A stretch of DNA of 34,373 nt from a virus (taxonomy: Duplodnaviria; Heunggongvirae; Uroviricota; Caudoviricetes), in IMG/VR virus record IMGVR_UViG_2713896907_000006, positions 1-34,373 of that record. The stretch is one strand, 5' to 3'. Positions 884 through 33,380 of this stretch are shown here, in pieces. The notes under the pieces were generated by a model. That model worked only from the letters and a program-made list of their open reading frames with translations, searched no databases and had not been told where the DNA came from. Both the position numbers and the translations under genes were made by a program. Position 1 is the stretch's first letter; each line of letters opens with the position of its first letter.

Positions 884-3055
884 CTATTTTAAGCTAATTG
901 TTGCATCTCTTAAATAATATTTTTTCCCATCTGCAATGCTCTTAAGTACAGCTTGAATGCGAGTCGGATGCTTTGAAATATCTATGTTTTTAGCTTTATT
1001 TCTAACCTCATCTACATCAAGTATTTCCCCGAAATAATGTTCGTCAAAAATAACATAAGGGCCATTCGTTGAATCTCTACCAGTTTCACCAATAATTTCA
1101 CACAATCTAATTATGCCATCTTCTGATAAGATGGAAGCAAGAAATTCTGATGTGAATTCAACAGAGATTCTCTTTAATTCGAAAAATATATTTGATTCTA
1201 GATGATAGTCAAAAAATATTTTTTTATTTAAAGCAATAGTAGCTGTTTCTTTGAAGGTATTCTCAAGTTCAACAATCTGATCTTTATTAATCTGTATATT
1301 ACTTGAGTTTCGTACGTTGTATAGTACTTCTGCTCCAAGTGGCGCATTCTCATATCGACCAATAATTTTTTTTATTAGCTCATATTGCTCACTACTTTTA
1401 GATATAATTTTATCAGTGAGCCAATACATCCTTCTATAAGGATCTTCTCTAATGAGACCATAGTTTTTTTCTAATGAAGATTTTAACTCTTGAGAGAAAA
1501 GAAATCTATCATAAATGCACGTTAATATATTAAAACTATCAACTTTACAACAAGCGTCTGTATAAATATTCATCATTTCGAAAAATCTTTCCTCGGCATT
1601 TTGAGATAACACATCCTCAAGGAATTTTTCTCTATTAATTTTCCCTTCGATGAAAAGAAGAATGTCATGATCGGAAATATATCCTACTGGAGTTTTAAAA
1701 TGAAGGGCAATATGAAGTCTTTGGGGGGCAGAAATTCTTCCTGCTGCATCTGAGTCAGATACATCATAAGGATAAGATTGATTGGGGCGTAGAAGAGGGA
1801 AAATATACTCTAATAGCCCCTGCATCAATGTACGTTCTCGTTGAGAAAAAATATTTAGTTTATTGCATCGTTCATGGCTATAATGCTCTATAATATCTTG
1901 ATGTTTATTCATTAACAAATTATTGATGGTTAATCTATTCCCAATGTACGCTTCAGGAGTATTCTTTATATGCTCATAAATTAAATTTGATTTGGTTGCG
2001 ATTAGAGATAAAGAAAAAAGATCTGAAGAACACACCTGACCTTTAATTTGCTCTAAAGTAAATCTCAAGTGGTTGAAAAACCTTTTCAACTCTCTTGGAT
2101 TATTAATTAATTGCTTGAAATAATTATGGTAAATCCAATCTAATCTTTCTTGATCTTTTTCAAATTTATCAGTTAAAAAACTATCACCTAGTTTTTCAAA
2201 CTCTGAATTTGCGATTTCATTCAGTCCTCTTTCTGAAATTACGGGAAGTGAAACTCGAAGTTGAACAATCTTATTAATATATTCTGACGGATTTATAATG
2301 TTATTTTTATCAAGCACAGAAATTAGGTAATTAGGATCAAATGCAAGTAAAAAAGAAGTGCCTGAGAAATTCGCAACAGCTTTGACTAACCGTAAAACTT
2401 GAAAAGCCTCAGAGGGTGTTAAACGATCAATATCATCAATTATTACAATTATAGGATGTTTTATTTTTTTTATCGCATTAGCCACTTGTTTTTTTCTATC
2501 TAAAAGATCAAGTTTTTTTAACTCAGCTATTTTTTTAGTAGCATGTCCAAAGCTTGAAAGAGATTTTTCTATGATAGATGCCCATGGTTCTGCTCCAGGG
2601 ATAAGTTTAGCAGCACTAAAGAGGCTAGAGTATGCAATTAGCTCTTTTGATACTTTTAATGCAACTTTTGATTTGTCTTTAATATTTAGTTGTGAAGAAA
2701 ACTGCAATAAAAAATCTTGAATCAAGGATTCAGGTTGGCCAGCCAACCATGGATTATATTCTATTATAATGGGTAAGGAGTCCTTTTCATTTAAGGCATT
2801 TTTTATAAGATTTATGACTGACGTTTTACCATATCCCCACTCAGCCTCTATAGATACAGTGAAACAATCATCGTCGTTATTTAATAGTAAAATATTTGCC
2901 AAATTATTTGCAAAAGTAAGTCTATTTAGTAAGTCTGGATCATTTTGACCGCCTAGTATAGGTTGGTCATTATGATATGCTCTCATTTTTAAACTCATCC
3001 ATTTAAATAAAGCAATCATAGAGATGTTGCTATTAATATTATAATATAGCCACAA
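884..3055 (-). CDS. KAP-family P-loop NTPase (about 700 aa), accessory cargo gene
   Basis: Walker A-like AEWGYGKTS, Walker B-like IIVIIDDIDRL, and the KAP-typical NPRELKRFFNHL motif, followed by roughly 370 aa of unassigned C-terminal sequence. The gene and both flanks are strongly AT-rich compared with neighbouring phage genes. True start is probably an internal ATG near 2986. Confidence 0.8.
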   Translation of the reverse strand: MWLYYNINSNISMIALFKWMSLKMRAYHNDQPILGGQNDPDLLNRLTFANNLANILLLNNDDDCFTVSIEAEWGYGKTSVINLIKNALNEKDSLPIIIEYNPWLAGQPESLIQDFLLQFSSQLNIKDKSKVALKVSKELIAYSSLFSAAKLIPGAEPWASIIEKSLSSFGHATKKIAELKKLDLLDRKKQVANAIKKIKHPIIVIIDDIDRLTPSEAFQVLRLVKAVANFSGTSFLLAFDPNYLISVLDKNNIINPSEYINKIVQLRVSLPVISERGLNEIANSEFEKLGDSFLTDKFEKDQERLDWIYHNYFKQLINNPRELKRFFNHLRFTLEQIKGQVCSSDLFSLSLIATKSNLIYEHIKNTPEAYIGNRLTINNLLMNKHQDIIEHYSHERCNKLNIFSQRERTLMQGLLEYIFPLLRPNQSYPYDVSDSDAAGRISAPQRLHIALHFKTPVGYISDHDILLFIEGKINREKFLEDVLSQNAEERFFEMMNIYTDACCKVDSFNILTCIYDRFLFSQELKSSLEKNYGLIREDPYRRMYWLTDKIISKSSEQYELIKKIIGRYENAPLGAEVLYNVRNSSNIQINKDQIVELENTFKETATIALNKKIFFDYHLESNIFFELKRISVEFTSEFLASILSEDGIIRLCEIIGETGRDSTNGPYVIFDEHYFGEILDVDEVRNKAKNIDISKHPTRIQAVLKSIADGKKYYLRDATISLK

Positions 3056-3375: not shown

Positions 3376-4485
3376 TCACTCTGTTTCTGCTATCCATTCT
3401 GGGATTTTTGCTTCAAGCTCAAGCTGCGTGGTAAAGCCGCTGTTATCAATGGTGTGCTCGGTTTTCGCAATAATCCAGTCCTGATTATCAATCTCGCTTT
3501 TAAATCCTGTTACCGTGCCATGCATTTCGGGGTAGAGTTCTGCGCGTCCACGTGCCAGCATGATGGAGAATGATGCGGCTCCGCGTTGTAGCTGCTGCCA
3601 CTTTGCCGCCGCTGCGCGTCTTGCTGCCTGCTCGTTCTGATAAGTCTTGCGTAACACAAACACATTGCCTTCCGCGCCTTCCATATAATCACCTTCACGG
3701 CTGCTGCTTTTCTCCTTTTTGGGTTTTGGCGGTTTGCGGCGTTTCACGCTGACTTTTTTCTTTTTCCCGTAATTAAGATCAAGCCAGTAGGCGCGTACAC
3801 CCGTATACGCCTCGCGGTCAGCAATGCGGAACTGATGGCGATCGCCGCTGCTGCGTGTGATGGCAAACGATGGCAATGGTTTTCCCTGCGCGTTCACGCC
3901 ACCACCTGGCATAATGAATAACAGATTACCGCTTTTTACCGTGGTGATTGCGCCCAGCATTTCCGCCATGCGTGTAAGGAAGGACATGTCGCTTTCTTCG
4001 GTCTGGTCGGCGTGGTCGATTTCGATATCCATCAGCATTTCGCTGATTTGCGGTTTCAGGCCGTATCGGTGAGCAATTGCAGACACCACGCGTTCAACGG
4101 TCACATCATGCCAGGATACTTCGCGCTTGACGTTAAATTCATCCCGAAAATCTGCGCTTCTGGCTGAAATGGTCAGTCTGTCGGGCGGTCCTTCATGAGC
4201 AATTTCATCAACAATGTAAGTGCCTTTTTCTGTCAGCGGTTCGCCTTTCCAGCCAATGAGAACCGTCAGGCGAGCTCCCCGTGGCGGCAACTGCAACTGA
4301 CCATCAGCATCATCCAGCGTGATGGTGAGCTGGTCTGCTTCAAATCCCCGGTTGTCGGTCAGTGACAGGCTCATCAGGCGTTCTGCCACACCGGATAGCG
4401 TTTTCCCCTCCGCGAGAATATCAAAATCAGGCATCTTCACGGGGTCAGTACTCTGGTTGAACAGTTGCATGGTGGTGTCAATCAT
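3376..4485 (-). CDS. D: Tail protein gpD (late control gene D family)
   Basis: Translation from MIDTTMQLFNQSTDPVKMPDFDILAEGKTLSGVAERLMSL matches P2 gpD along its length, including the lysine-rich KKKKVSVKRRKPPKPKKEK segment. Start chosen at the ATG at 4485, preceded by a GGGAGGGAG ribosome-binding site; the ORF track extends further upstream to 4617. Confidence 0.85.
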   Translation of the reverse strand: MIDTTMQLFNQSTDPVKMPDFDILAEGKTLSGVAERLMSLSLTDNRGFEADQLTITLDDADGQLQLPPRGARLTVLIGWKGEPLTEKGTYIVDEIAHEGPPDRLTISARSADFRDEFNVKREVSWHDVTVERVVSAIAHRYGLKPQISEMLMDIEIDHADQTEESDMSFLTRMAEMLGAITTVKSGNLLFIMPGGGVNAQGKPLPSFAITRSSGDRHQFRIADREAYTGVRAYWLDLNYGKKKKVSVKRRKPPKPKKEKSSSREGDYMEGAEGNVFVLRKTYQNEQAARRAAAAKWQQLQRGAASFSIMLARGRAELYPEMHGTVTGFKSEIDNQDWIIAKTEHTIDNSGFTTQLELEAKIPEWIAETE

Positions 4486-4642
4486 CGGCTCCCTCCCTGT
4501 GCAGCATGGTCGCATGTGTGTGCGGGCGGGGTTACTGCTTTTTGTTGTCGCCGGGCGGCAAGAACGGCGCAGGGATGAGATTGCGCGCGTGGTGGGTGAT
4601 GATTGTTGCCGAATCATTTAACGGATACAAGGGGCTGGAACT
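4486..4642. promoter_or_regulatory. Divergent intergenic region between D and FI, presumed to carry promoters for both
   Basis: 157 bp between the divergent start codons of D (minus) and FI (plus). No exact TGT-N12-ACA Ogr-type site was found by eye. Confidence 0.35.
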
Positions 4643-5827
4643 ATGAGTGAAACTCGCTTTCATGGCGCCCGCGTTACGGAAAGTACCGACCTGGTAACAG
4701 CAATTAACGACGTTGATTCCAGCGTTATCGGTATCGTGGCAACGGCGGACGATGCGGACGCGAAGCTGTTCCCGCTGAACAAGCCTGCATTAGTGATCCG
4801 CGTCAATGACGTGCTGGGAAAATGCGGGACAACGGGGACGCTGTACCGTGCGCTGAAACCCATTGCAGACCAGGTGAGCACAAAGGTGATCGTCGTTCGC
4901 GTGGCTGAACACAAAGAAGAAGACGGAAAAACACAGGATCAACTGGTTATCGGTGGTTCTGAATCCGACGGCAGCTATACGGGGATGTATGCGCTGCTTG
5001 TTGCAGAGCAGGATGAAAGCATCGGATACCGTCCGCGTATTCTGGCCGCGCCGGGGCTGGACACGGAGGCGGTGACAAAATCCCTGTGCGTGATTGCAGG
5101 TAAACTGCGCGCGTTTGTGTATGCCTCCTGTCATGGCTGTAACACGATGGCTGAAGCCATTGCATACCGTGAAAAATTCAACGAACGCGAGCTGATGCTC
5201 CTGTGGCCGGACTTCATCGCTTACAACCCGAAAAGTGGCGAGAATGAGGTTTTCCCCGCGCCAGCCTATGCGTGCGGCCTTCGTGCGTACATTGACCATG
5301 AGCAGGGCTGGCACAAATCGCTGTCCAACGTTCCGGTCAAAAATGTGCTGGGGATGTCCAGGCATGTGTTCTGGTCGTTGCAGGCTGATGACAGCGATGC
5401 CAACAGCCTCAACAACAAAGAAATCACAACCATCATTCGCCGCAACGGGTTCCGCTTCTGGGGCAACCGCACACCGGAAACGAACGCCTACATCTTTGAG
5501 GTGTATACCCGAACCGCACAGGTGCTGGCTGATTCAATTGCGGAAGCGCAGTTTGAAACCATCGACAGTCCACTGACGCCCGCGAACGTGAAGGACGTCA
5601 TCAGTGCCATCAGGGCAAAACTGGATTCGCTGGTTACTGCCGGGAAACTGATTGGCGCATCGTGCTGGTATGACATCGTGGATAACAGCACCACAGAATT
5701 ACGACAGGGGCGCGTGCGTATTCGCTATAAATATACGCCCGTTCCTCCGCTGGAAGATATGGAGCTTTACCAGGCGTTCACTGATGAGTTCTTTGGTCCT
5801 GCATTTGCAGTGCTTGGAGGTGCTTAA
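4643..5827 (+). CDS. FI: Tail sheath protein FI
   Basis: 394-aa product with the FPLNKP, IIRRNGFRFWGNRT and YTPVPPLE motifs shared with P2 FI. Confidence 0.9.
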   Translation: MSETRFHGARVTESTDLVTAINDVDSSVIGIVATADDADAKLFPLNKPALVIRVNDVLGKCGTTGTLYRALKPIADQVSTKVIVVRVAEHKEEDGKTQDQLVIGGSESDGSYTGMYALLVAEQDESIGYRPRILAAPGLDTEAVTKSLCVIAGKLRAFVYASCHGCNTMAEAIAYREKFNERELMLLWPDFIAYNPKSGENEVFPAPAYACGLRAYIDHEQGWHKSLSNVPVKNVLGMSRHVFWSLQADDSDANSLNNKEITTIIRRNGFRFWGNRTPETNAYIFEVYTRTAQVLADSIAEAQFETIDSPLTPANVKDVISAIRAKLDSLVTAGKLIGASCWYDIVDNSTTELRQGRVRIRYKYTPVPPLEDMELYQAFTDEFFGPAFAVLGGA

Positions 5828-6339
5828 TGGCCGTACCAAAACATCTTCGTTTTTTTACGCTGTTTGTGGATGGTGAAAATGAAGTGGGTAAGGTGACGTC
5901 TGTCACCCCGCCTAAACTGACGCGTAAAACCGACAGCTATCGTGGTGGTGGCATGATGGGGGCGGTGAGTATCGACCTCGGCCTGGACGATTCCGCGCTT
6001 GATGCGAGTTTTGTCATGGGGGGCGCCGTTCGTGCGCTGTTCCTTAAATATGGCGGAACAATGGACGGCACGCTGCTGCGTTTTGCGGGTGAATACTACA
6101 CCGATGCAGAAAGCGACCTGTATGAAATCGAGATGCGCGGGCGTGTGACGGAAATTGATATGGGGGAGGCCAAACAGGGCGAAGCCACGTCACACACTTA
6201 CGCTGTCAAAAACACCTACTACAAGCTGAGTATTAACGATCGTCCGGTGTGGGAAATTGACCTGGTGAACCACATCTACCGGAAGGATGGCAAGGACATT
6301 GTACCCGACCGCATCCGCTCCGCGCTTGGGCTCGGCTGA
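5827..6339 (+). CDS. FII: Tail tube protein FII
   Basis: 170 aa, start overlapping the FI stop; position and length match P2 FII. Confidence 0.85.
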   Translation: MAVPKHLRFFTLFVDGENEVGKVTSVTPPKLTRKTDSYRGGGMMGAVSIDLGLDDSALDASFVMGGAVRALFLKYGGTMDGTLLRFAGEYYTDAESDLYEIEMRGRVTEIDMGEAKQGEATSHTYAVKNTYYKLSINDRPVWEIDLVNHIYRKDGKDIVPDRIRSALGLG

Positions 6340-6393
6340 TAAGTAATATGCAGGCGGCGCAGTGCGTCGCCTCTGACTGAAAGGAGTTTTCTG

Positions 6394-6762
6394 ATGAAAG
6401 AGACGAAAAATACCAATACTGAAAACGCTGTGGTGGTTGCTGATACTGCGAAAGAAACCAGCGAGCGCGGCGTAAAACTTACCCAGCCAATTGAGCGAGG
6501 CGACGAAAAAATCACTTATGTGGAGATTACCGGGGCTATTGAGCAGGCTGGATCCCTGCGTGGTCTGTCGCTGTCTGATGTGCTGAATCTGAAAGCGGAA
6601 TCCATGTTTACGCTGTTGTCACGCGTGACATCACCGCGACTGGATGAAGTGACGATCAAAAAAATGGCATCCCGTGACTTTATTCAGTTATGTGTGGTTG
6701 CCGTAAATTTTTTGAGCGGTGCGGACTCTGGCGGGAAGAACGAACAGGCGACGGAAGCCTGA
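6394..6762 (+). CDS. E: Tail assembly chaperone gpE
   Basis: 122-aa ORF immediately upstream of the tape measure gene, containing a TTTTTTG slippery heptamer near its 3' end. Confidence 0.8.
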   Translation: MKETKNTNTENAVVVADTAKETSERGVKLTQPIERGDEKITYVEITGAIEQAGSLRGLSLSDVLNLKAESMFTLLSRVTSPRLDEVTIKKMASRDFIQLCVVAVNFLSGADSGGKNEQATEA

Positions 6763-6926
6763 TCACGGTTGTGTGCTTTGAGCACATAGAAGACTTTGTG
6801 GCGGATATTGCCGCCATTTTTAACTGGTCGCCCGCCGAAATCTTCATGATGACGCCCGGCGAAGTGGTTAGCTGGCGTGAGCGGGCGGCACTTCGCAGCG
6901 GGAATGCAGACAATGAAGACTCTTGA
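6394..6926 (+). CDS. E+E': gpE+E' frameshift fusion product (predicted)
   Basis: Joining the gpE frame to the -1 frame at the slippery site gives an extended product ending at 6926, as in P2 E/E'. Confidence 0.65.
6708..6714 (+). promoter_or_regulatory. TTTTTTG slippery heptamer for the -1 programmed frameshift producing gpE+E'
   Basis: TTTTTTG lies in the gpE frame as AAT TTT TTG; the -1 frame is open from here to 6926. Confidence 0.75.
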
Positions 6927-9720
6927 TATCCGGGTCGCTTTCAGCGCCGTTGACAGGCTGACCCGGCCTGCCGAAAACGCCCGCCGCCTGATGGGGCAGT
7001 TTGGTGACTCCATCCAGCGAACGCAGGGGGCGATCAAAAATCTCGAGCGTCAGGCGCGTTCATTTGAGCGCGCCCGCGACGCTGTCAGTAAAGCGGATGC
7101 GGGTATCGTGAAAGCACGACGCCAGCTTAACGCCCTTAATCAGTTACAACGCACGGGTACAGTGCTCAGCGAAAAACAACAAAAGCTGATGCAGCAGTTA
7201 AGCACCCGGCTTGAACGCTTGAATGAATCGCGCACACGGGAAATTCAGAAAATGCGGGAACTTGGCGGAGAGTTGAAACGCCACGGCATTTCCCTGACAG
7301 GCAGCGATAACACCATCCAGCAGGCCATCAGACGCACCGAACAGTACAACAACCAGCTTGAACGCGAACGGCAGGCGCTTGCGCGTGTAACGCGGGCGCG
7401 TGAGCGGTATTCGCGCGCGCAGGAAACCGCGGGAAAACTGAAAACAGGTGGTGCGCTGGCAATTGGTGCGGCAGCGGCGGGCGGCTATGCTGCCGGGCGT
7501 TTTTTGCAGCCTGCGATCGGGTTCGGCAAAGAGATGTCCCGCGTTCAGGCACTGACGCGAATCGACAAAAACAGCCCGCAGTTTAAGGCGCTGCGTGAGC
7601 AGGCGTTAAAACTTGGCTCTGAAACACAGTTTACTGCGAGTGATGCCGCCAGTGGGCAGAGCTTTCTGGCAATGGCTGGTTTTACTCCGCAGGCCATTCA
7701 GGCCGCATTGCCCGGTGTTCTTAATATGGCGCTGGCAGGTGGCGTCGAACTCGGCGAGACGGCTGATATAGGCTCCAATATCCTCACACAGTTCAACCTG
7801 ACAGCCGATCAAATGGACCGGGTGGGCGATACGCTGACAGCAGCATTTACCCGGACCAATACTGATTTACGCGCGCTGGGCGAAACCATGAAGTATACCG
7901 GTCCGGTTGCCGCAAAACTTGGTATCAGTCTTGAAGAAGCGGCGGCCATGGCCGGGATGCTTGCCAATAATGGTCTTCGCGGAAGCGATGCTGGCACGGC
8001 CATGCGCGCAAGTCTGTCCCGCCTTGCATCACCGCCAAAAGCTGCGGCTGATGCACTGAAAGAGCTGGGGGTGTCAGTTGCTGACGCCAGAGGCAAAATG
8101 CGCCCGATGGAGGATGTGCTGCTTGATCTCTATAAGGCGACACAAAAATACGGACAGGTGGACCAGGTCTCCTTCTTCAAGGACATCGCCGGAGAAGAGG
8201 CGTTCGTTGGTTTGCAGACGCTTGTTGCGGCGGCTGGTTCAGGAGAGCTGCAAAAACTGACCAGAGAATTGCAGGAGGCAAGGGGAGAGGCCGATCGCGT
8301 TGCAAAAGTAATGGCCGATAATCTTGATGGGGACCTGAAAAATCTCGACAGCGCATGGGAAGGTCTTCGTATTCGCATCAGTGATCTGGTTGACGGTCCG
8401 CTGCGTTCTGTCACGCAGTGGCTCACGCGGGTGCTTGAAAAAATCACCTCGCTGGCGCAGGCCCATCCGGTCCTGACGCGCCAGCTACTGATAGCAGGCG
8501 GTGCGTTGCTGGCAATGACTGCAACGATTGGCTCGTTGTCGCTGGTTATTGGGGTGCTTTACGGGAAGCTGGCCACCTTGCGTCTTGGTTTTGACATTCT
8601 TACCCGGTCAATGAATGTCGTCAGGGTGTTGCCTGCGCTATGGGGAATGGTGACGGGTTCCGTTTCTTTACTGGGAGGCGCGATCGGGGCGTTGTTCAGT
8701 CCGGTTGGTCTTATCGTGGCTGCGCTTGCCGGAGCTGCCGTTCTTATCTGGAAATACTGGGATCCCATCAGGGCATTTTTTGCCGGGGTGTTCAGCGGGA
8801 TTATGGAAAGACTGACCCCGTTGCGTGAAACCTTTGAACGGTTTGGTCCTGTTTTTGACGCAATCGGAAGCGGGATCAGCCAGGTGTTTAACTGGTTTAA
8901 ATCGCTGCTGTCACCGATGGAGTCCAGCAAGGAAACGCTGGATAAATGTACCAGTGCTGGCGAGATATTCGGTAACGTTCTTGGCGGTGCGTTACAACTT
9001 GTTCTGACACCTGCAAAAATGCTACTGGATACGCTGGCGTGGATACTTGAAAAACTTGGCGTCCTTCCGGATGAAGCGGAAAGGGCGCGCAAGAAAATCG
9101 AAGACGCACAGCGTGCGGCCATTCTTCAGGACAAGGTTGCCTTGCTTCAGGGGGACCTGGCGAAAATCAATCCGCCGAAGCCTGTGGAAAATGGCAATGG
9201 CACCGGAGGTGATAAACCCAAAGACAATAAACCGCTCACAGACAGCAATACCGGTACGCTGCGTAGACTCAGCAAAATTGCTGATAACACAGGTAAGCTG
9301 GTTGATGAGACGAAAAAACGCATTGGCCCCGGCGATATTGTCTTTAAGAACCTGCCCCGCGCACTTGCTGTTCGTGGGGAGTGGCAGGAGCGGAAGATTG
9401 CGCAGGTCAGTAAGCCTGCCCCCGCAATTAATATCACACCCGTGGTTCCGGCTCCGCTGCCTCCGGCGCTGGTCCCTGTTGTTGCGGCCAGCTCCCGCCC
9501 GGTGGCGGAGGCCATACGATCGCCAGTGGCATCAGTTCCTGCAACTTCCCGTAACCGGGAACCTGTTGCCTCCGGATTTGGCGGTGAAATTCATGTTCAT
9601 CTGCATAACGTTGTTACACAAAATCCCCGTGAACTGGCGAAACTGGTCGGTGAAATGGTCAGGGCAGAAATGGAACGGCGCGCCCGTGCCGGGCGTGGCA
9701 GTTTTTGCGATAAAGATTGA
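6877..9720 (+). CDS. T: Tail tape measure protein gpT
   Basis: Largest tail ORF (about 935-947 aa), coiled-coil-rich N-terminal half and Gly/Ala-rich hydrophobic segments; sits between E/E' and U. Start may be the ATG at 6913 (MKTLDI). Confidence 0.9.
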   Translation: MSGRHFAAGMQTMKTLDIRVAFSAVDRLTRPAENARRLMGQFGDSIQRTQGAIKNLERQARSFERARDAVSKADAGIVKARRQLNALNQLQRTGTVLSEKQQKLMQQLSTRLERLNESRTREIQKMRELGGELKRHGISLTGSDNTIQQAIRRTEQYNNQLERERQALARVTRARERYSRAQETAGKLKTGGALAIGAAAAGGYAAGRFLQPAIGFGKEMSRVQALTRIDKNSPQFKALREQALKLGSETQFTASDAASGQSFLAMAGFTPQAIQAALPGVLNMALAGGVELGETADIGSNILTQFNLTADQMDRVGDTLTAAFTRTNTDLRALGETMKYTGPVAAKLGISLEEAAAMAGMLANNGLRGSDAGTAMRASLSRLASPPKAAADALKELGVSVADARGKMRPMEDVLLDLYKATQKYGQVDQVSFFKDIAGEEAFVGLQTLVAAAGSGELQKLTRELQEARGEADRVAKVMADNLDGDLKNLDSAWEGLRIRISDLVDGPLRSVTQWLTRVLEKITSLAQAHPVLTRQLLIAGGALLAMTATIGSLSLVIGVLYGKLATLRLGFDILTRSMNVVRVLPALWGMVTGSVSLLGGAIGALFSPVGLIVAALAGAAVLIWKYWDPIRAFFAGVFSGIMERLTPLRETFERFGPVFDAIGSGISQVFNWFKSLLSPMESSKETLDKCTSAGEIFGNVLGGALQLVLTPAKMLLDTLAWILEKLGVLPDEAERARKKIEDAQRAAILQDKVALLQGDLAKINPPKPVENGNGTGGDKPKDNKPLTDSNTGTLRRLSKIADNTGKLVDETKKRIGPGDIVFKNLPRALAVRGEWQERKIAQVSKPAPAINITPVVPAPLPPALVPVVAASSRPVAEAIRSPVASVPATSRNREPVASGFGGEIHVHLHNVVTQNPRELAKLVGEMVRAEMERRARAGRGSFCDKD

Positions 9721-9726
9721 GGAGTC

Positions 9727-10221
9727 ATGGCCATGATGATGATCTACGGCATGTTTGTTTTTGAGCTGCGCACATTGCCGCATCAGCAGTTACAGCAAAA
9801 CAAAAGCTGGCGGCATGTGAAAAATGAACGCGTTAACCGTTCAGCAAGCTGGCAGTATATCGGTGCAGGTGATGATCGCATCGTTCTTTCTGGTGTGCTT
9901 TATCCTGAAATTACAGGTGGCGAAGTGTCGCTGTCGCTGCTGACCACGCAGGCGTATACAGGACGCCCCTGGCCTCTTATTGATGGCGTCGGGCAGATTT
10001 ACGGCATGTATGTCCTGACCGAAGCGAATACGACCCGTTCCGAGTTTGATCGCTACGGTAAAGCGAAAAAGATAGAATTTTCACTGACCCTTGAACGCTG
10101 TGATGAGGATTTGCGGGAGCGCCTGCAATCCTCATCGTTCAGCGATATGCTGTCCGGCTTCAAAGATAAGGTGACATCATCTCTTAACAGCGCGGGCAGT
10201 TCAGTTAAAGGGTTGTTCTGA
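9727..10221 (+). CDS. U: Tail protein gpU
   Basis: 164-aa product (MAMMMIYGMFVFELRTLPHQQ...) directly after the tape measure gene; matches P2 gpU in size and position. Confidence 0.85.
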   Translation: MAMMMIYGMFVFELRTLPHQQLQQNKSWRHVKNERVNRSASWQYIGAGDDRIVLSGVLYPEITGGEVSLSLLTTQAYTGRPWPLIDGVGQIYGMYVLTEANTTRSEFDRYGKAKKIEFSLTLERCDEDLRERLQSSSFSDMLSGFKDKVTSSLNSAGSSVKGLF

Positions 10222-10230
10222 TTTAACACA

Positions 10231-10265
10231 AAAACCGCTAATGGTCAGATTAGCGGTTTTTTCTT
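10231..10265 (+). terminator. Rho-independent terminator after gpU
   Basis: 9-bp stem ACCGCTAAT / ATTAGCGGT with a 6-nt loop, followed by TTTTTTCTTTTG, about 10 nt after the U stop codon. Confidence 0.75.
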
Positions 10266-10515
10266 TTGTTGAATCTTCTCGCTTGTCTGAAGTGGCTCGT
10301 ATTGTGTCCTGACGAGAAAGAGCCGATAAACTAACATCATAACAATCGCGATCTGCTTTCGCATTCTGTCGTCAGGAACCCAAAATTTGTTTTCGTAAAT
10401 CTGCATTATCTATTCTGGTTGTTTCACATAATAACTTGTATACTCCAATATTATCCATAACCACTAAGACTATTTTAAGTAAATTCAGGTTGAAGGATTC
10501 TAAGGAATAATTTCT

Positions 10516-11235
10516 ATGTTAATAGTTTCTGTACTACGTTGCGGTAAGGATTTTACGCCAAAGCATGCACAATGGCTTCATAAACAATTTGGCTCAATGC
10601 CATCAGTCTGCTTAACGGATGCTGGATATATTGATGGAGTGGACACTGCGCCATTGTTATTTGATTGGCCTGGTTGGTGGTCAAAAATGGAATTGTTCAA
10701 CCCCAATCATCCAGTAATTGGAAATCATGATATTTTATATTTTGATATTGATGTTGTTATTACAGGAAAATTAGATGCTTTTGCAAAGGCTAAAAACTTC
10801 ACCATGCTTAGGGAGTTTAATCATCATGGGCGAGTTAATTCATCAATTATGATGATCCCAGTATCTGCAAAGCAAAAAATATGGGATGCCTTTACTGCCA
10901 ATCCTGAGGAGATAATGCAAGAGTGTCGAACTGAAGATAAATGGGGAGATCAAGGGTTTATTGGTAGCATAACAAAACCTGATTTGTGGCAGGATATTAT
11001 TCCTGGTGCAATTAAAAGTTATAAGTGCGATATAGCAACAAAATCAATGATTGGATATAACCCAGATCTCGCATCAAAATCAGCAACAGGAAAAATACCT
11101 AATGGTGTTTCGGTTGTATGCTTTCATGGTAGTCCGCGCCCTTGGCGTACTGGTTTTAAATGGGTTCCATCTTTATCGTTAAAAGACTCTCTCTATGGCA
11201 AAGTAAAAAATCTAAAATTAAAGATTAAGCGTTAA
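10516..11235 (+). CDS. Hypothetical protein, AT-rich moron at the P2 Z/fun-equivalent locus
   Basis: 239-aa ORF in a markedly AT-rich segment between the tail operon terminator and gene G. No family recognised with confidence; contains a hydrophobic strand followed by FDIDVV, a DxD-like arrangement that could indicate a GT-A-type nucleotide-sugar transferase. Confidence 0.7.
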   Translation: MLIVSVLRCGKDFTPKHAQWLHKQFGSMPSVCLTDAGYIDGVDTAPLLFDWPGWWSKMELFNPNHPVIGNHDILYFDIDVVITGKLDAFAKAKNFTMLREFNHHGRVNSSIMMIPVSAKQKIWDAFTANPEEIMQECRTEDKWGDQGFIGSITKPDLWQDIIPGAIKSYKCDIATKSMIGYNPDLASKSATGKIPNGVSVVCFHGSPRPWRTGFKWVPSLSLKDSLYGKVKNLKLKIKR

Positions 11236-11261
11236 TATAAGGGAGGACATCCTCCCTTATA
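11236..11261. terminator. Perfect 11-bp stem hairpin filling the gap between the convergent moron and gene G
   Basis: TATAAGGGAGG-ACAT-CCTCCCTTATA spans exactly the 26 bp between the two stop codons; probable bidirectional terminator. Confidence 0.65.
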
Positions 11262-11828
11262 TCATGGTTGAATAGGCCAAACAGGATCAAAAATATCAAC
11301 ACGATTTAACTGTATTCGATAATTCTTCCAGGCGTTCAGTAACAATGCTTCTTCTTTCGTTGCAATCTCCAGATCTACAGCATCCAGAAGTGGCGCAATA
11401 TGTTCATTAGCCAATTGCATCAGTCTGTTTTTTGTTTCTGCCGCTTCCCGTATCCGAAACAGTTTTTCTGCTTCTGCATCTTTCACCCAGGCTGTGCCGT
11501 TCCACTTCTGAAACTCCCCTTCCGGGGATAACCAGGTGACATGTTCCGGTAGCGGTCCGAGTTCAGAAATAAATAACGCATCCCCTGATGCCACGTCATA
11601 AACCGTTTTACCCCGATGGTCTTCAACGAGATGCCACGATACATCCTCACTGTTGAAAACAGCCACAAAGCCAGCCGGAATATCTGGCGGTGCAATATCG
11701 GTACTGTTTGCAGGCAGACCTGTATGAGGTGGGATGTATGCATCACCTTCACCAATAAATTCATTAGTTCCGGCCAGCAGATTATAAATTTTTATGGTCC
11801 GTGCTTGTTCACTCATTCTGAATGCCAT
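11262..11828 (-). CDS. G: Tail fibre assembly chaperone gpG
   Basis: 188 aa; C-terminal segment [26 protein letters not shown] resembles the P2 gpG C-terminus; located directly downstream of H. Confidence 0.8.
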
Positions 11829-13660
11829 TATGCAAGCCTCACAATATAATTAAATGCGATATTTTTGACGGTGTTTTCCGCGTTACCAGCGGCGTTAACG
11901 GTGATGGTGTGTCCATGCGCACCTAATGCCACAGTGTGCGCATGGGCACCAATACCAACTGTGTGGTTATGTTGACCAATATCGACGGTATGAGAATGCG
12001 CACCAGCACTGTCCGTTTGTGCCAGCGTCTGATAGTTCACTTTTGAACTATAGGTCCCCCCTAAATTCTGAAGATTAGTGCGAGCTAAAACTCCGCCATG
12101 AGTGTGTGCTCCTGTATTGTTTGTCGTTTTTGTGCCGTGATTAAACGTGCTGACCGTTTTTGTCCCGTAATCAAATGAGCTGGTCGTTTTAGTACCGAGG
12201 TCGGTATTTGACGCACTGGCACTGTGGGTGTGAGATTTGATGCCGTCCTGCTCCTGTGACAATACGGCGCGACCACTGGCGGGCTTGCCCTTAATCGTCC
12301 AGCCACGCATATCAGGGATCACGCCTGACGGATAAGCGGCTGCAAGCAGGGGATAGGCTGCTTTATCAAAAGATTGCCCCTGCATAATGGCATAGCCTGT
12401 AGGTACTGAATCAGAAGGCCACGGAATCGCCGCACCTACCGGGAATGAATCCTGCGGTGTCCAAGGTGTCCAGCCACCCGTTGAGTACTGGCTGCGGGTA
12501 TAGCTTCTGGATGTGTTATACACATAGTAAATTTGTGTTATCCCGGCATTTTTAAGCACAACCAGTGTGCCTGCAAGGTTCTCCGGGTATTTCAACACTG
12601 CGCTTGTATTGGCATTCGCTGGCTGATGGTACAGCCCCGGCGTTTTGTAATTATCCAGATTCTGGTTTGCACCAATCTCAATACTCTGACCGTTAAAAAT
12701 ATCCTGCGATGTAACATTGACATCATTGTTCAGTGGCTTGCCATTAACCTTACGTTCTGAGGGCACACGCCCGTTTGCATTGTCATTAGCAGCTTTCACT
12801 GCTTTCGGCGTCGCGGCAAGCGTTTCAGAGTCACTGTTAGTGGCGCTGCTTAACTGGACAAGACCTTTTCGCGCTGTGGTGGCGTCCTGTGCGGTGTATT
12901 TGCCATTAGCAAGGTCATAGGCGGCCTTTACCGCCTTTGGCGTTGCCGCAAGCGTTTCAGAATCGCTGTTGGTGGCGCTACTGAGCTGGATAAGGCCTTT
13001 TCGCGCGGTGGTGGCATCCTGTGCAGTATATTTCCCGTTAGCAAGGTCATAGGCGGCCTTTACCGCCTTTGGCGTTGCTGCAAGCATTTCAGAATCGCTG
13101 TTGGTGGCGCTACTGAGTTGAACAAAGCCTTTTGCGGTCAGCGAGGCATCCGGGTGACGTCGTGACTGTTCATGCTCTTTTAGTTTGTCATCCACGTAAT
13201 CCGCTGTGGCCATCACCATGGTGTTATCCACGGTAAGCGCCACGGTGGCCGTGCTGGATACAGTCAGGATGGTGCGAAATGTTTGCGCTCGCCCGGACCC
13301 TTCGGCAACGGTTGGCTTGTAACTTTCGGCAGTATTGCCCACCGCGATTAAATCGCCGTGCTCATCAAACACACCAATTTCCCGGATCCAGAATCCGCCC
13401 GTTTCAGGAGGAATAACCAGCTCTGCAATAATGCGGTTCTGATGTGTTGCGTCCAGGAAGACGCGATTAACAGTATGTCGCCACACCTCATGCACCAGAC
13501 TGGTCTGCTTACTGTCTGGTGTGGGCAATGTACCGCCACCGTCGCCCACGGCCATATGAGTCAGGCGGACAGGCTTACCATCTGGCGCGGCTGCCTGAGC
13601 TAATTTTTTGGCACCAGTATCAGTGATAATGGTTTTAAATTTTCGTGTTGTGGTACTCAT
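11828..13660 (-). CDS. H: Tail fibre protein gpH
   Basis: N-terminus [26 protein letters not shown]... closely parallels P2 gpH. Contains three tandem copies of an approximately 41-aa unit and a His-rich C-terminal region. Confidence 0.9.
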
Positions 13661-22272: not shown

Positions 22273-24024
22273 ATGATTCAGGACGCTTTTGTGCGCCAGC
22301 GTGCGCGACAACTTTACTGGCAGGGTTATCCGCCCGCAGAAATATCACGTCTGATGGGAATAAACCCGAACACGATTTATGCGTGGAAAAAACGCGACCA
22401 GTGGGATGAAGCGCCACCCGTGCAGCGTGTCACGCAGTCCATCGATGCGCGCCTCATCCAGCTTACTGAAAAACAGAATAAAACAGGTGGTGACTTCAAG
22501 GAAATAGACCTGCTGACCCGGCAGCTTAAAAAACTGCATGATGGCCAGCCGGATGCGACGGCCACAGGAAAGAAAGGCCGGGCGAAAAAACTTAAAAATC
22601 ATTTCACGCCGGAACAGATTGCCGCACTGCGGGAAAAAATCATCAGCAGGCTGGAGTGGCATCAGCGGGGCTGGTTTGACTCCCTGACCCTTTGCAGGGA
22701 AGCCGGGATACGTAACAGGATGATCCTGAAATCCCGACAGATTGGGGCGACCTGGTATTTTGCACAGGAAGCGCTGCTGATGGCGCTGCGTGACGATGTG
22801 GCGCAACCTTACCAGCGTAACCAGATTTTTTTGTCTGCGTCGCGTCGTCAGGCGTTCCAGTTTAAAAGCATTATTCAGAAGGCCGCGGCTGAAGTTGATG
22901 TGGAGCTGAAAGGGGGCGATAAAATCATCCTCTCCAACGGCGCAGAGCTGCATTTTCTCGGCACTTCTGCTGCGTCGGCACAGTCCTATACGGGCAATTT
23001 TTATTTTGATGAATTTTTCTGGGTCAGTCGCTTTGCTGAACTGCGCAAGGTGGCTGGCGCTATGGCAACCCTCAGCGGACTGCGGCGCACCTACTTCTCC
23101 ACGCCATCCACCGAAACGCACGAGGCATACGCCTACTGGAACGGCGACCGCTGGAACGAGAAAAAGGCCACGCATAAACGCCAGCGTTTTTCTGTGGACT
23201 GGGAAACGCTGCATAACGGGCTTATCTGCCCTGACCGGACGTGGCGGCAGATTGTCACGCTGGAAGATGTGGTTAATCACGGCTGGAAACACACCGATAT
23301 TGACGAAATTCGTGATGAAAACACCGAAGACGAGTTCCTCAATCTCTATATGTGTGAGTTTGTCCGCGAAGGGGAATCGGCATTTAACCTGAATATCCTG
23401 ATTGGCTGCGGTGTTGACGGATACGACGACTGGAAAGACTGGAAACCTTTTGCTCCCCGCCCGATGGGGAATCGTCCGGTATGGATTGGGTATGACGCAA
23501 ACGGCAGCAGTGGCAACGGCGACAGCGGCGCTGTGTCCGTGGTGGTTCCTCCGTCTGTTCCTGGTGGCCGTTTTCGAACGGTGGAGACGCGACGCGTTCA
23601 GGGGCTGGAGTTTGAAGAACAGGCCAGAGTCATTGAAGAGTTCACGTGCCGCTACAACGTGGAACACATCGGCATTGATGTGACGGGCGGGAACGGGGAG
23701 GCTGTTTATCAGATAGTGAAACGGTTTTTCCCTGCCGCTATTCCGTACACCTTCACGCTGTCATCAAAACGGTCGCTGGTACTGAAAATGCTGCAAATAA
23801 TGCGTGCCGGACGGTGGGAATACGATCGCGCCGAACGCGAGCTGGTCGCGGCCTTTAACGCCGTGCGTAAGGTGAAAACACCGGGCGGCTTTATCACTTA
23901 CGAAACGGACCGCGCGAGGGGGATCAGCCACGGCGACCTTGCGTGGGCAACCATGCTTGCTGTCATTAACGAACCAATTGGCGGCGAAGGAGAAAACGAG
24001 CGTTTCACGGTTATGGAGTTCTGA
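22273..24024 (+). CDS. P: Terminase large (ATPase) subunit gpP
   Basis: 583 aa, size and position match P2 gpP. Confidence 0.9.
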   Translation: MIQDAFVRQRARQLYWQGYPPAEISRLMGINPNTIYAWKKRDQWDEAPPVQRVTQSIDARLIQLTEKQNKTGGDFKEIDLLTRQLKKLHDGQPDATATGKKGRAKKLKNHFTPEQIAALREKIISRLEWHQRGWFDSLTLCREAGIRNRMILKSRQIGATWYFAQEALLMALRDDVAQPYQRNQIFLSASRRQAFQFKSIIQKAAAEVDVELKGGDKIILSNGAELHFLGTSAASAQSYTGNFYFDEFFWVSRFAELRKVAGAMATLSGLRRTYFSTPSTETHEAYAYWNGDRWNEKKATHKRQRFSVDWETLHNGLICPDRTWRQIVTLEDVVNHGWKHTDIDEIRDENTEDEFLNLYMCEFVREGESAFNLNILIGCGVDGYDDWKDWKPFAPRPMGNRPVWIGYDANGSSGNGDSGAVSVVVPPSVPGGRFRTVETRRVQGLEFEEQARVIEEFTCRYNVEHIGIDVTGGNGEAVYQIVKRFFPAAIPYTFTLSSKRSLVLKMLQIMRAGRWEYDRAERELVAAFNAVRKVKTPGGFITYETDRARGISHGDLAWATMLAVINEPIGGEGENERFTVMEF

Positions 24025-25070
24025 TGAGCAGAAAAAATAAAAAAGTGCGCATGAGTTCACGCATTGATCTCGCTGATGCGCTCAGGAAAGAATCGTCGCT
24101 CAGTGCATTCACATTTGACGGCCCTTATCGCCTGACCGGGCATGATTTGCTGGACAATATGTACTGTGCTGATAACGGGCGGTGGTATGAAACCCCGGTG
24201 GACTGGTACGGTCTGGCAAGAGCCGCCCGGCAAACGTCCTGGCATCAGTCTGCGCTTTACTTTAAGCGCAATGTATTGCTCGGCTGCTATATTCCGCACC
24301 CGCTGCTTTCCCGACAGGATTTCTCGGCGCTGGCGCTGGACTGGTTTGTGTTCGGTAACGCATTCCTTGAGCTTCGAAGCAATATGCTCGGCGAACCGCT
24401 TAAATTACGGCACGCCCTGGCGAAATACATGCGACGCGGAAGTGATCTTGAATCATGGTGGTATGTGCAGGATGGCAAGGATGCGTTTCAGTTTCGCCCA
24501 GGCAAAGTGTGCCACCTGATGAACCCGGATATTAACCAGGAAATCTACGGCATGCCGGAATATCTCGGTGCATTACTCTCGGCCAGTCTTTCCCATTCGG
24601 CGGACATGTTCAGAAAACTGTATTACGACAACGGATCCCACGCCGGGTGCATCATCTACATCGGTGCAGCGCAGGTAAACCGCGAAAGCATGGACTCCCT
24701 GAAAGAAACGCTACAGGGTGCGCGTGGTGGTGGTGCATTTAAAAATGTGCTCATTCATGCGCCCAACGGGGGCAAAGAGGGTGTGCAAATTTTGCCGTTC
24801 CAGCAGATCACCGCAAAGGATGAGTTCATGAATGTTAAGGCTGCATCCCGTGATGATGTGCTGGCTGCGCACCGCGTTCCACCGCAACTGATGGGGGCGA
24901 TGCCGGGCGAAAAAAGTGCGTTTGGTGATGTGGAGAAGGCCGCGCGGGTTTACGCAATTAACGAGCTGATGCCCGTCATGGAGGCCATGAAGCACATCAA
25001 TGACTGGCTGGGCGAAGAGGTGATCCGCTTTAACCCTTACGCACTGTTAGACCCCCAGCCCACATCCTGA
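24024..25070 (+). CDS. Q: Portal protein gpQ
   Basis: 348 aa, start overlapping the P stop; matches P2 gpQ in size and position. Confidence 0.9.
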   Translation: MSRKNKKVRMSSRIDLADALRKESSLSAFTFDGPYRLTGHDLLDNMYCADNGRWYETPVDWYGLARAARQTSWHQSALYFKRNVLLGCYIPHPLLSRQDFSALALDWFVFGNAFLELRSNMLGEPLKLRHALAKYMRRGSDLESWWYVQDGKDAFQFRPGKVCHLMNPDINQEIYGMPEYLGALLSASLSHSADMFRKLYYDNGSHAGCIIYIGAAQVNRESMDSLKETLQGARGGGAFKNVLIHAPNGGKEGVQILPFQQITAKDEFMNVKAASRDDVLAAHRVPPQLMGAMPGEKSAFGDVEKAARVYAINELMPVMEAMKHINDWLGEEVIRFNPYALLDPQPTS

Positions 25071-26740: not shown

Positions 26741-27700
26741 TTACTCCTTGTCCATTGCGTACAACCCATTAACCAGAGCAAACTGTGGCACTCCGTCCGC
26801 GATGAAAGTCGCATTAACTCCGCAGGCTTCGCGGATAGCGGGTGCCACAATCTCCGCCCCTCCACCGACAACCATCACCCGCCCGTAACCGGAAAAACCC
26901 GCCAGCGCGCGGATCACGCGTTGTTTCAGTGTTTCTTCCTTTTCACGAATCACCGCCATCAGGCTGGCGTAATGCGCGTCATTGTGGATGTGCTGGCGCA
27001 GCCAGGCTTCATCGTGGCGATGTTCGATAATAGTATTGGCGATGTGGTGACTGGTGCGCATACCGTTAGTGGCCATCACCGACAGTACGGCATCGGCCAT
27101 CAGAGAAACGCCTACGTGTGGATCGCAAAACACCTGGCTGATACCTGCCAGTTGCCCCTGAACCTTTGCCACATCCAGCGTGGTTCCGCCCAAATCCACA
27201 ATCAGCAGGGATTCAAACGGACTCATGTCAGCCAGTGCTTTAAAGCCAGCCGGAATGGATTCAGGCATAACCCGCACGTTACGGATAGTGAATGCCTCAC
27301 CGTTCTGGTACTCCACCGGGCGCATGACGTTCGCTTTTTTGCGGTTGATGTTGGCCATGTCCGGCTGTGCGTTTGTGTCGAAATATTCGCTCAGTGGCAG
27401 GGTGACAACCACATCTACTTCCTGTGGTGTGATGCCTGATTTGACCAGTGCGTGGTGAATGGCGATTACATTCACATCGCTGTACTGGTATTGCGTGTCG
27501 GTCGTCTGGACAAAGCGATCGCTGACCGGATCAAAACCATAGCGCACGCCATCAAGCATGTAGTTCGCAGGCTGCGAGCCACCGAATGGCGCAGACCATT
27601 CCGACTTGAAGCTGTTCGGGCTGATGGCGTTGCGGCGTTCGCCGTTCTCACTCCATGCCAGCTTGATGTTGGTGGAGCCGTCGTCGATACAAATTTTCAT
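26741..27700 (-). CDS. parM: ParM-like actin-type partition ATPase (plasmid R1 ParM/StbA family)
   Basis: MKICIDDGSTNIKLAW...ISPNSFKSEW...YQYSDVNVIAIHHAL...VMPESIPAGF...LLIVDLGGTTLDV...VMVVGGGAE closely parallels R1 ParM along the whole length. Confidence 0.9.
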   Translation of the reverse strand: MKICIDDGSTNIKLAWSENGERRNAISPNSFKSEWSAPFGGSQPANYMLDGVRYGFDPVSDRFVQTTDTQYQYSDVNVIAIHHALVKSGITPQEVDVVVTLPLSEYFDTNAQPDMANINRKKANVMRPVEYQNGEAFTIRNVRVMPESIPAGFKALADMSPFESLLIVDLGGTTLDVAKVQGQLAGISQVFCDPHVGVSLMADAVLSVMATNGMRTSHHIANTIIEHRHDEAWLRQHIHNDAHYASLMAVIREKEETLKQRVIRALAGFSGYGRVMVVGGGAEIVAPAIREACGVNATFIADGVPQFALVNGLYAMDKE

Positions 27701-27730: not shown

Positions 27731-27840
27731 GTTTACGGGATTCTGAAATCCCGCTTTTGCCTGTTTTGTGCGCGCTTCATATTTCGCGGCGCGTTTTTTG
27801 CTCATTTACGGGATTTGTGAATCCCGTTTCTGTCTGTTTT
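27731..27840. repeat. Two copies of an approximately 40-bp element, each containing a CGGGATT-N4-AATCCCG hairpin followed by a T-rich tract
   Basis: Copy 1 hairpin 27736-27753, copy 2 hairpin 27809-27826; both are preceded by TTTACGGGA and followed by CTGTTTT. They straddle the gene A stop codon, just upstream of parM. Confidence 0.75.
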
Positions 27841-33019: not shown

Positions 33020-33331
33020 ATGTCAAGTGGGTACGAAAAAAAACTGAAAGAGATACGGAAAAGTGAAGGGTTAACTCAAGCTGAGTTTGCTGATGTTACT
33101 GGGATAAATCTCGGAACTATAAAGAATTATGAGAGCGGTAAAAGAGAGGTTGGTTTAAGCGTTGTTGATCGCGTAATTAATTCTAAGGATTTCGAAAAAT
33201 ACACTATATGGCTTATGACGGGAAAAACAAATGAGGCTGCAGGGCAGATCAGTCCCTCTCTCTCCCCTGATGGGCCAGAAAACACATCGTCTTCTCAAAA
33301 ATCCCGCAAGACTGGCACACAGCCCGGCTAA
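33020..33331 (+). CDS. C: Immunity repressor C (P2 C-type)
   Basis: 103 aa; N-terminal helix-turn-helix region (LTQAEFADVTGINLGTIKNYESGKR) and KYTIWLMTGKT segment parallel P2 C; directly upstream of int. Confidence 0.85.
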   Translation: MSSGYEKKLKEIRKSEGLTQAEFADVTGINLGTIKNYESGKREVGLSVVDRVINSKDFEKYTIWLMTGKTNEAAGQISPSLSPDGPENTSSSQKSRKTGTQPG

Positions 33332-33380
33332 TCATGGAACGCTGGGGGCATGGTGGTCTTGTAACGCTGGGGTTTCACGA

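Follow-up and report, generated by a model that had tools for sequence, protein, structure and literature searches.

A GT8-like glycosyltransferase of the PmgQ family carried as single-gene cargo in a P2-like prophage

Which molecule is modified by the product of a solitary, AT-rich gene lodged between the tail genes and the tail fibre genes of a prophage? The question is raised by the IMG/VR virus record IMGVR_UViG_2713896907_000006, analysed here over its whole length of 34,373 nucleotides (the window), which is a complete P2-like prophage. The gene of interest codes for a small glycosyltransferase (the GT gene) and is placed downstream of the gene of a gpU-type tail protein and convergent to the tail fibre assembly gene G (Table 1). 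The finding itself is a fairly ordinary moron, and the enzyme class is already annotated in phage databases, being labelled glycosyltransferase in PHROGs and RefSeq. The question of real value concerns the acceptor of the PmgQ-like family to which the enzyme belongs, either the virions of Gram-negative phages or the lipopolysaccharide (LPS) of the host. Through this family, virion or host glycosylation in Gram-negative phages becomes directly testable.

The enzyme and its family

The protein matches over its full length the PHROGs profile phrog_1962, named 'glycosyltransferase' (E=2.6e-77; residues 1-223 on profile positions 1-224 of 230). A tblastn search of 50,697 phage records retrieved a copy in Escherichia phage Chlobot, 92% identical and annotated as a glycosyltransferase, as well as P1 PmgQ and P7 HdmD, with 35% identity over 92% of the length (E=2e-32 for P1 pmgQ); no mycobacteriophage match was obtained in these records. 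A preliminary description, made from the sequence alone, had assigned the protein to no recognised family. This holds for Pfam, NCBIfam and PADLOC, whose models gave no match (for the PADLOC defence models at E up to 10), and does not hold for PHROGs, where family 1962 names the protein, or for P1, where PmgQ is homologous to it. A single-sequence search of the PDB sequences gave no significant match. The relationship to the GT8 family is seen solely via profile and structure.

A profile of 61 homologues matches solved GT8 enzymes, namely the Skp1 alpha-galactosyltransferase (E=1.4e-6) and glycogenin (E=1.5e-5), and places the DxD, GDQ and PRPW motifs of the window protein in register with the DxD, GDQ and ...KPW motifs of these enzymes. 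Invariant in the 61-sequence alignment are W54-W55-x-K57, D77-x-D79, G144-D145-Q146, K170 and F203-H204-G205-x-P207-x-P209. R208 and W210 are conserved in at least 90% of the homologues, and the last motif of the window protein reads F203-H204-G205-x-P207-R208-P209-W210. The FDIDVV segment, in which a DxD-like element had been suspected, contains the invariant pair as D77-I-D79. The AlphaFold2 (AF2) model is of high confidence (predicted local distance difference test score, pLDDT, 96.6; predicted template modelling score, pTM, 0.93) and has a GT-A fold, the closest solved structures being GT8 enzymes, which extend glycans and are not toxins. With the PHROG assignment, the profile matches and the model in agreement, the glycosyltransferase hypothesis of the preliminary description is borne out, and the protein is a divergent GT8-like, GT-A-fold glycosyltransferase. 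It is termed GT8-like, and not a GT8 member, because the Pfam test for GT8 failed and the histidine motif is shifted: the His is displaced by two positions (CFHGxPRPW versus HFxGxxKPW of GT8) and an Arg takes the place of the Lys. Being GT8-like, the enzyme is presumably retaining and probably metal-dependent.

The distance to the GT8 enzymes classified in CAZy is considerable. The window protein is 10-14% identical to enzymes of the LgtC, glycogenin, Skp1 alpha-GalT, GlyE, WbbM and WaaJ/WaaO type, and its N-terminal nucleotide-binding motif differs from theirs. The Waa GT8 enzymes have about 335 residues, whereas the window protein is much smaller and lacks their C-terminal domain. It ends in a tail of 29 residues with a net charge of +8, in which AF2 models a polybasic helix (residues 222-238). 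A tail of this kind after the PRPW motif, with 28-43 residues and a net charge of +3 to +11, is confined to the clade of at least 49% identity; in the distant relatives this tail has 10-16 residues, a net charge of -2 to +2 and is mostly acidic. The 29-residue polybasic tail is thus missing in family members below about 49% identity, a comparison in which the C-terminus of PmgQ itself was not included. Strong purifying selection on the gene is indicated by the ratio of nonsynonymous to synonymous substitution rates (dN/dS), which is 0.05 in comparison with the copy of Chlobot and 0.17 in comparison with that of the closest locus, the P2-like Escherichia coli prophage L002.

The PmgQ-like proteins form a large family, for which neither Pfam nor NCBIfam has a model. 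An exhaustive profile search returned 5,404 representatives of clusters at 50% identity at E<=1e-3, and 1,339 of them at E<=1e-30. The DxD, GDQ and FHGxPRPW motifs are common to the wider family, to which P1 PmgQ and P7 HdmD belong. P1 pmgQ, together with pmgO and pmgP still described as having a 'putative morphogenetic function', is now tied to a widespread family, members of which turn up repeatedly in glycan-synthesis clusters of phages. One recurrent cluster of glyco-genes combines PmgO-like and PmgP-like genes (both products weakly MptE-like) with Nucleotid_trans and PmgQ-like genes. It was found in P1, Citrobacter phage phiNP, the P2-like phage L023 and phage contigs of 110-250 kb, and its P1 members are all non-essential. 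In the literature on pmgQ and on prophage glycosyltransferases beside tail-fibre assembly genes, no functional study was found.

The cassette, its slot and its expression signals

The preliminary description had seen in this AT-rich island a single-gene moron at a variable accessory site, and both composition and comparison agree with it. In 400-nt windows the GC content is 0.34-0.40 across 10200-11400 and 0.51-0.58 on either side. The GT gene has a GC content of 0.372 and a GC content at third codon positions (GC3) of 0.271; the GC content of the whole window is 0.514, and the GC3 values of the tail genes U and T and of the fibre gene H are 0.55, 0.57 and 0.50, respectively. The GC3 of gene G is low as well (0.365), and this gene also adjoins the GT gene in lambdoid phages. 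In blastn comparison with the sister prophage L003 of E. coli, identity is 97% up to 10227 and 81% from 11294 onward, and the stretch between these breakpoints has no homology to L003. The corresponding interval of L003 contains an equally AT-rich gene for a hexapeptide acetyltransferase, which has a promoter-like sequence and a terminator of its own. The cassette is a self-contained, horizontally acquired cargo in an already documented P2 slot.

The cargo of the slot was surveyed across 5,426 complete E. coli genomes. Elsewhere in the species the interval from U to G holds one of two different hexapeptide acetyltransferases, a GT9-like gene or a recombinase. The window-type gene is scarce, being present in 30 of the 5,426 genomes and in just one of them within the U-to-G slot. 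The strains that carry an acetyltransferase or the GT9-like gene in this slot include Shiga toxin-producing E. coli (STEC) of types O103, O45 and O157.

In P2-like phages, the site between G and FI is designated 'moron position 2' (Wiles et al., PMC3573123), and in strain CFT073 (prophage phi-b0847) it is occupied by neaT, an AT-rich, oppositely oriented acyltransferase-3 gene (PMC3573123). The window slot lies downstream of G and corresponds to this position, in keeping with the preliminary description, which had equated it with P2 Z/fun. Both have a content that varies between related prophages and a single AT-rich open reading frame (ORF) transcribed against the tail-fibre gene G (PMC3573123). 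The correspondence is broken by the inverted tail block only: the FI-FII-E-T-U block has the opposite orientation to that in P2, so that U, not FI, abuts the cargo, which is placed between U and G and not between G and FI. The cargo proteins also differ, since NeaT is an integral-membrane acyltransferase-3 and the window product is predicted to be a soluble GT8-like enzyme.

The cassette moves between phage types, and the gene is found in P2-like and lambdoid prophages of Escherichia, Citrobacter, Salmonella and Klebsiella. Matches to the window in both phage types cover 10380-11235 (about 84% identity) and 11233-12443 (about 77-78%); the DNA shared with the lambdoid phages starts at 10380, and the sequence farther upstream is unrelated. 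By context, the homologues fall into two classes, one distant (class a, 32-46% identical) and one of at least 49% identity (class b), the latter all from Enterobacterales. The class b genes are solo genes at moron sites and, where checked, are preceded by a terminator and have promoter-like upstream sequence. They occupy the U-to-G slot of the window and of L002; the distal end of the lambdoid genome in Chlobot and in a prophage at bio-ybhB, where they converge with tfa; the position downstream of the fibre and Tfa genes in myovirus prophages of Escherichia albertii, Klebsiella aerogenes and Citrobacter amalonaticus; and P2 moron position 1. A strict functional tie of the gene to tail fibres was considered and is weakened, as members of the same clade also occupy P2 moron position 1 and, in one instance, a non-phage islet. 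The islet member, P0033, is 50% identical to the window protein, has a polybasic tail and lies outside any prophage, in low-GC surroundings (0.35-0.45 versus about 0.52). Its neighbours are a convergent gene of the WaaZ family (Kdo III transferase-like) and a GT2 gene (L029 5001-8000; L030 4691-6272).

Near its upstream end the cassette has a perfect stem and a T-run, in agreement with the terminator that had been predicted after gpU. Its folding free energy (dG) is -16.5 kcal/mol (z -4.4), a value equalled by 0 of 200 shuffled sequences, and given the A-run upstream of the stem a bidirectional action is possible. On the other side of the gene, the preliminary description had placed an 11-bp hairpin shared with the convergent gene G. 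The hairpin is present and occupies the entire 26-nt gap from the stop codon of the GT gene (11235) to that of gene G (11262), although each arm has 12 complementary bases, not 11. ViennaRNA pairs 12 bases on the plus strand and 14 on the minus strand, with dG values of -18.5 and -20.7 and z values of -4.8 and -6.8, respectively. The terminator scan did not list it, and the absence of a T-run on either strand means that it is not a canonical intrinsic terminator. The stem is kept in L002 with an altered loop, and an insertion of 80 nt with a different hairpin is present in the lambdoid contexts.

Upstream of the GT gene, a block of 32 nt (TTCTGGTTGTTTCACATAATAACTTGTATACT) is identical in the window, the lambdoid phage Chlobot and the lambdoid prophage at bio-ybhB, and has a single mismatch in the P2-like L002. 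The block accompanies the gene and is a candidate promoter or operator. An autonomous expression unit with its own promoter at 10263-10515 had been proposed. By its anatomy, i.e. the terminator, the conserved block, the ribosome-binding site and the hairpin, the locus looks like such an autonomous unit, with a putative promoter. A late promoter of the Ogr/Delta type was rejected. No exact TGT-N12-ACA element lies upstream of the GT gene, the window as a whole having three against eight expected by chance and none of them nearby, and versions with one mismatch, as at 10367, 10388 and 10411, are so common that they carry no weight. This reading is undercut as well by the conservation of the upstream block in lambdoid phages, which have no Ogr. 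Also set aside was an antisense ORF of 53 aa with a hydrophobic core in the upstream region (10245-10406, minus strand), which is probably spurious: it overlaps the gpU terminator, has no Pfam match, and its frame is not conserved in L002 (95.5% identical), the lambdoid loci holding unrelated ORFs there.

Candidate acceptors

A host envelope glycolipid such as the LPS core, whose modification would change the surface of the lysogen, is put forward as the acceptor, tentatively and with somewhat less than an even chance of being right. Under this proposal the GT gene would have a promoter of its own, and its transcription would not depend on the two convergent late operons. In the protein, D77 and D79 would hold the metal and the nucleotide-sugar, D145 and Q146 would lie in the catalytic centre, and the H204...R208-P-W210 motif would be positioned at the diphosphate. 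The polybasic C-terminal helix would keep the small cytoplasmic enzyme at the inner face of the cytoplasmic membrane, where one sugar would be added to a lipid-linked host envelope glycan, either the LPS core-lipid A or an undecaprenyl-linked repeat unit. The altered surface of the lysogen could then bring about lysogenic conversion, receptor masking or superinfection exclusion.

The envelope glycan is suggested by the solo moron architecture, the clade-specific polybasic tail, the carbohydrate-modifying cargo of the sister prophages and one WaaZ-like association. The sister cargo consists of cytoplasmic carbohydrate-modifying enzymes (the two acetyltransferases and the GT9-like protein) and is counted in favour of an envelope acceptor. 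Nearly all known GT8 enzymes add to a glycan that already exists, and the glycans on offer in the E. coli cytoplasm are lipid-linked envelope intermediates, and for these reasons an envelope acceptor is favoured. The basic tail of the window protein also recalls the membrane-association segment of LgtC. Were an envelope glycan the target, the gene would on its own be a compact determinant of both serotype and susceptibility to phages, with a bearing on serotyping and on the host range in phage therapy.

Comparable accessory genes of temperate phages are known. GtrABC, Oac and NeuO, often encoded near tail fibre or tailspike genes or near the attachment site (att), modify host surface glycans and block superinfection; for the window enzyme, surface modification is a proposal only. 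The GtrABS system of CPS-53, for instance, inhibits phages of the BASEL collection (PMC11990801). The Gtr systems comprise three proteins and transfer the sugar in the periplasm from a lipid carrier, whereas the window gene would encode a single cytoplasmic, nucleotide-sugar-dependent enzyme of an unrelated family.

Several observations weigh against an envelope acceptor or against the steps leading to it. The Pfam scan found no family at E up to 10, the GT8 model PF01501 included. The hydrophobic moment of the C-terminal helix is moderate (muH 0.43), which makes its binding to the membrane a conjecture. The best sigma-70-like match upstream of the gene is weak (9 of 12 positions), and no -35 or -10 hexamer could be assigned with confidence in the conserved block, where no convincing -35 is found. 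The WaaZ-like neighbour of P0033 is a single instance and scores 74.9 bits, against an NCBIfam equivalog cut-off of 200. The contexts of the relatives fit the main rival, in which the enzyme glycosylates the virion during lytic growth, most plausibly the adjacent fibre H or its tip, otherwise a capsid or tail protein. The class a homologues are found in lytic or structural settings, which suggests virion or other lytic-cycle targets: in L013 and L014 they lie within late structural operons, between the major capsid and the head-tail connector genes and together with FkbM-type methyltransferases, and in L020-22 and L010-12 they belong to clusters for glycan synthesis, with several glycosyltransferases, that directly follow tail-fibre genes. 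MptE-like proteins are recurrent partners of the family, either clustered with it or fused to it, and fusions to sugar O-methyltransferase domains also occur; the MptE-like Pfam family also covers the Maf-type flagellin glycosyltransferases. P1 pmgQ belongs to the C1-repressed lytic operon pmgO-pmgP-ppp-pmgQ, and in five contexts the gene closely abuts tail fibre and Tfa genes, an adjacency that fits fibre glycosylation as well. There is also a precedent. Virions of the mycobacteriophages Che8, Corndog and Myrna have glycosylated subunits in the capsid and the tail tube (Freeman 2023, as cited in PMC12363180 and PMC12619734), and the glycosyltransferases Che8 gp110 and Corndog gp38 are reported to be essential for capsid glycosylation (PMC12363180). 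Glycosylation of this kind would alter virion stability, receptor binding or immune recognition, as in the mycobacteriophages. The genes of Che8 gp110 and Corndog gp38 lie among structural genes, like those of the distant relatives of the window gene. For the window gene, virion glycosylation is nevertheless judged rather unlikely. Unlike the mycobacteriophage genes, the GT gene lies outside the late operons, and it is AT-rich, insulated by a terminator from both of them and devoid of an exact Ogr-type late-promoter element upstream. P1 pmgQ is accompanied by the MptE-like PmgO and PmgP and the phosphatase Ppp; the window gene has no MptE-like partners. Acetyltransferases replace it in sister prophages whose upstream tail genes (tape measure and U) are about 97% identical, for which reason it is considered dispensable for virion assembly. 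Homologues of the same clade are found well away from the fibre genes, at P2 moron position 1, and one in the non-phage islet, and P1 pmgQ is itself non-essential for plaque formation (PMC10695390).

Another cytoplasmic target was also weighed. Here the enzyme would glycosylate a host protein or a small molecule, or drain the nucleotide-sugar pool, and act in host reprogramming or phage exclusion, as a defence or anti-defence function. Its slot is equivalent to P2 Z/fun, an exclusion locus, and the prophage carries further accessory genes, for a KAP NTPase and ParM. The preliminary description had held defence to be equally possible; this found no support, as the PADLOC models gave no match even at E=10, the nearest structures are the glycan-extending GT8 enzymes and the gene neighbourhoods point to no specific protein target, and such a role appears improbable. 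Hypermodification of phage DNA, in which sugars would be transferred onto modified bases to evade restriction, had been raised as well. Phage glycosyltransferases that act on DNA are well known (Pyle 2024, as cited in PMC12619734). For a P2-like temperate phage this role is most improbable: the gene is optional within near-identical prophages, one homologue has LPS-type genes beside it in the non-phage islet, and no base-hydroxymethylation gene was found among the window ORFs scanned with Pfam, a scan outside which most ORFs fall. The fold argues in the same direction, being of the GT-A/GT8 type and not the GT-B fold of the classic T4 DNA glucosyltransferases.

The virion and envelope readings could also be joined, although the combined scheme is speculative and unlikely to hold in all its parts. 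Core members of the PmgQ-like family, together with MptE-like partners, would glycosylate the virions of Gram-negative phages, P1 among them, and one enterobacterial clade would have lost the partners, gained the polybasic membrane-targeting tail and become a solo moron. Its enzyme would add a sugar to the LPS core and so mask the receptor of the tail-fibre/Tfa module with which it travels. If such masking of the LPS core by the solo clade were true, it would constitute a one-gene, cytoplasmic form of receptor masking, distinct from Gtr and Oac.

Layout of the prophage

The features of the window and of the compared loci are collected in Table 1. The Pfam scan covered part of the window ORFs, and the ORF list itself carries no annotation; the capsid and baseplate genes, on the minus strand, were assigned in it from position and size. 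Within window 3376-10221, the FI-FII-E-T-U block (plus strand) is inverted relative to H-G and D, which are both on the minus strand, unlike the P2 order. FI consequently diverges from D and U converges on G, an arrangement that is identical in the E. coli prophages L002 and L003.

Table 1. Coordinates of the features of the window and of the compared loci.
Feature	Position	Strand	Basis or remarks
GT gene	10516-11235	+	PmgQ / PHROG 1962 family; 239 aa, ATG start; AAGGA ribosome-binding site about 10 nt upstream
Replaceable cargo cassette (moron)	10228-11293		Stretch without homology to sister prophage L003
Intrinsic terminator after gpU	10230-10271	+	13-bp perfect stem 10230-10242/10249-10261, 6-nt loop, T-run
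Conserved 32-nt upstream block TTCTGGTTGTTTCACATAATAACTTGTATACT	10413-10444	+	Ends in the -10-like hexamer TATACT, 10439-10444
Perfect hairpin TATAAGGGAGGA/TCCTCCCTTATA	11236-11261		12 complementary bases per arm
gpU-type tail protein, upstream neighbour	9727-10221	+	PF06995, E=4.9e-39; closes the FI-FII-E-T-U operon
Tail fibre assembly gene G (Caudo_TAP), convergent neighbour	11262-11828	-	PF02413, E=8.8e-33
Tail-collar fibre H	11828-13660	-	Pfam
gpD	3376-4617	-	Pfam
Sheath FI	4643-5827	+	Pfam
Tape measure T	6877-9720		ORF position and size
Terminase/portal	22273-25070	-	ORF position and size
gpA	27777-30599		Pfam
Integrase	33231-34373		Pfam
Hexapeptide acetyltransferase, AT-rich	L003 4679-5251		EpsC/WcaB-like best match, under cut-offs
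Second, different LbetaH hexapeptide acetyltransferase, AT-rich	L027 2173-2718		EpsC/WcaB-like best match, under cut-offs
GT9-like protein, 392 aa	L026 2092-3270		Pfam 22.7 bits, at threshold
Glyco-gene cluster, P1	L015 4144-6702
Glyco-gene cluster	L016 5466-6651
Glyco-gene cluster	L023 4342-6666
Glyco-gene cluster	L010 4582-6702

Three further features of the prophage were observed. The H fibre contains three near-identical tandem Phage_fiber_2 repeats, Ser/Thr-rich, at about residues 173-300. Just past gpD, at the end of the prophage, a KAP-family P-loop NTPase of 723 residues is encoded (window 884-3055, minus strand; PF07693, E=3e-47); its gene is a candidate for an accessory or defence function. 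Between gpA and the portal gene, at the site of P2 'moron position 1', lies a gene for a ParM/StbA actin-like segregation ATPase (window 26741-27700, minus strand; PF06406 and PF21523), an unusual cargo for an integrated P2-like prophage.

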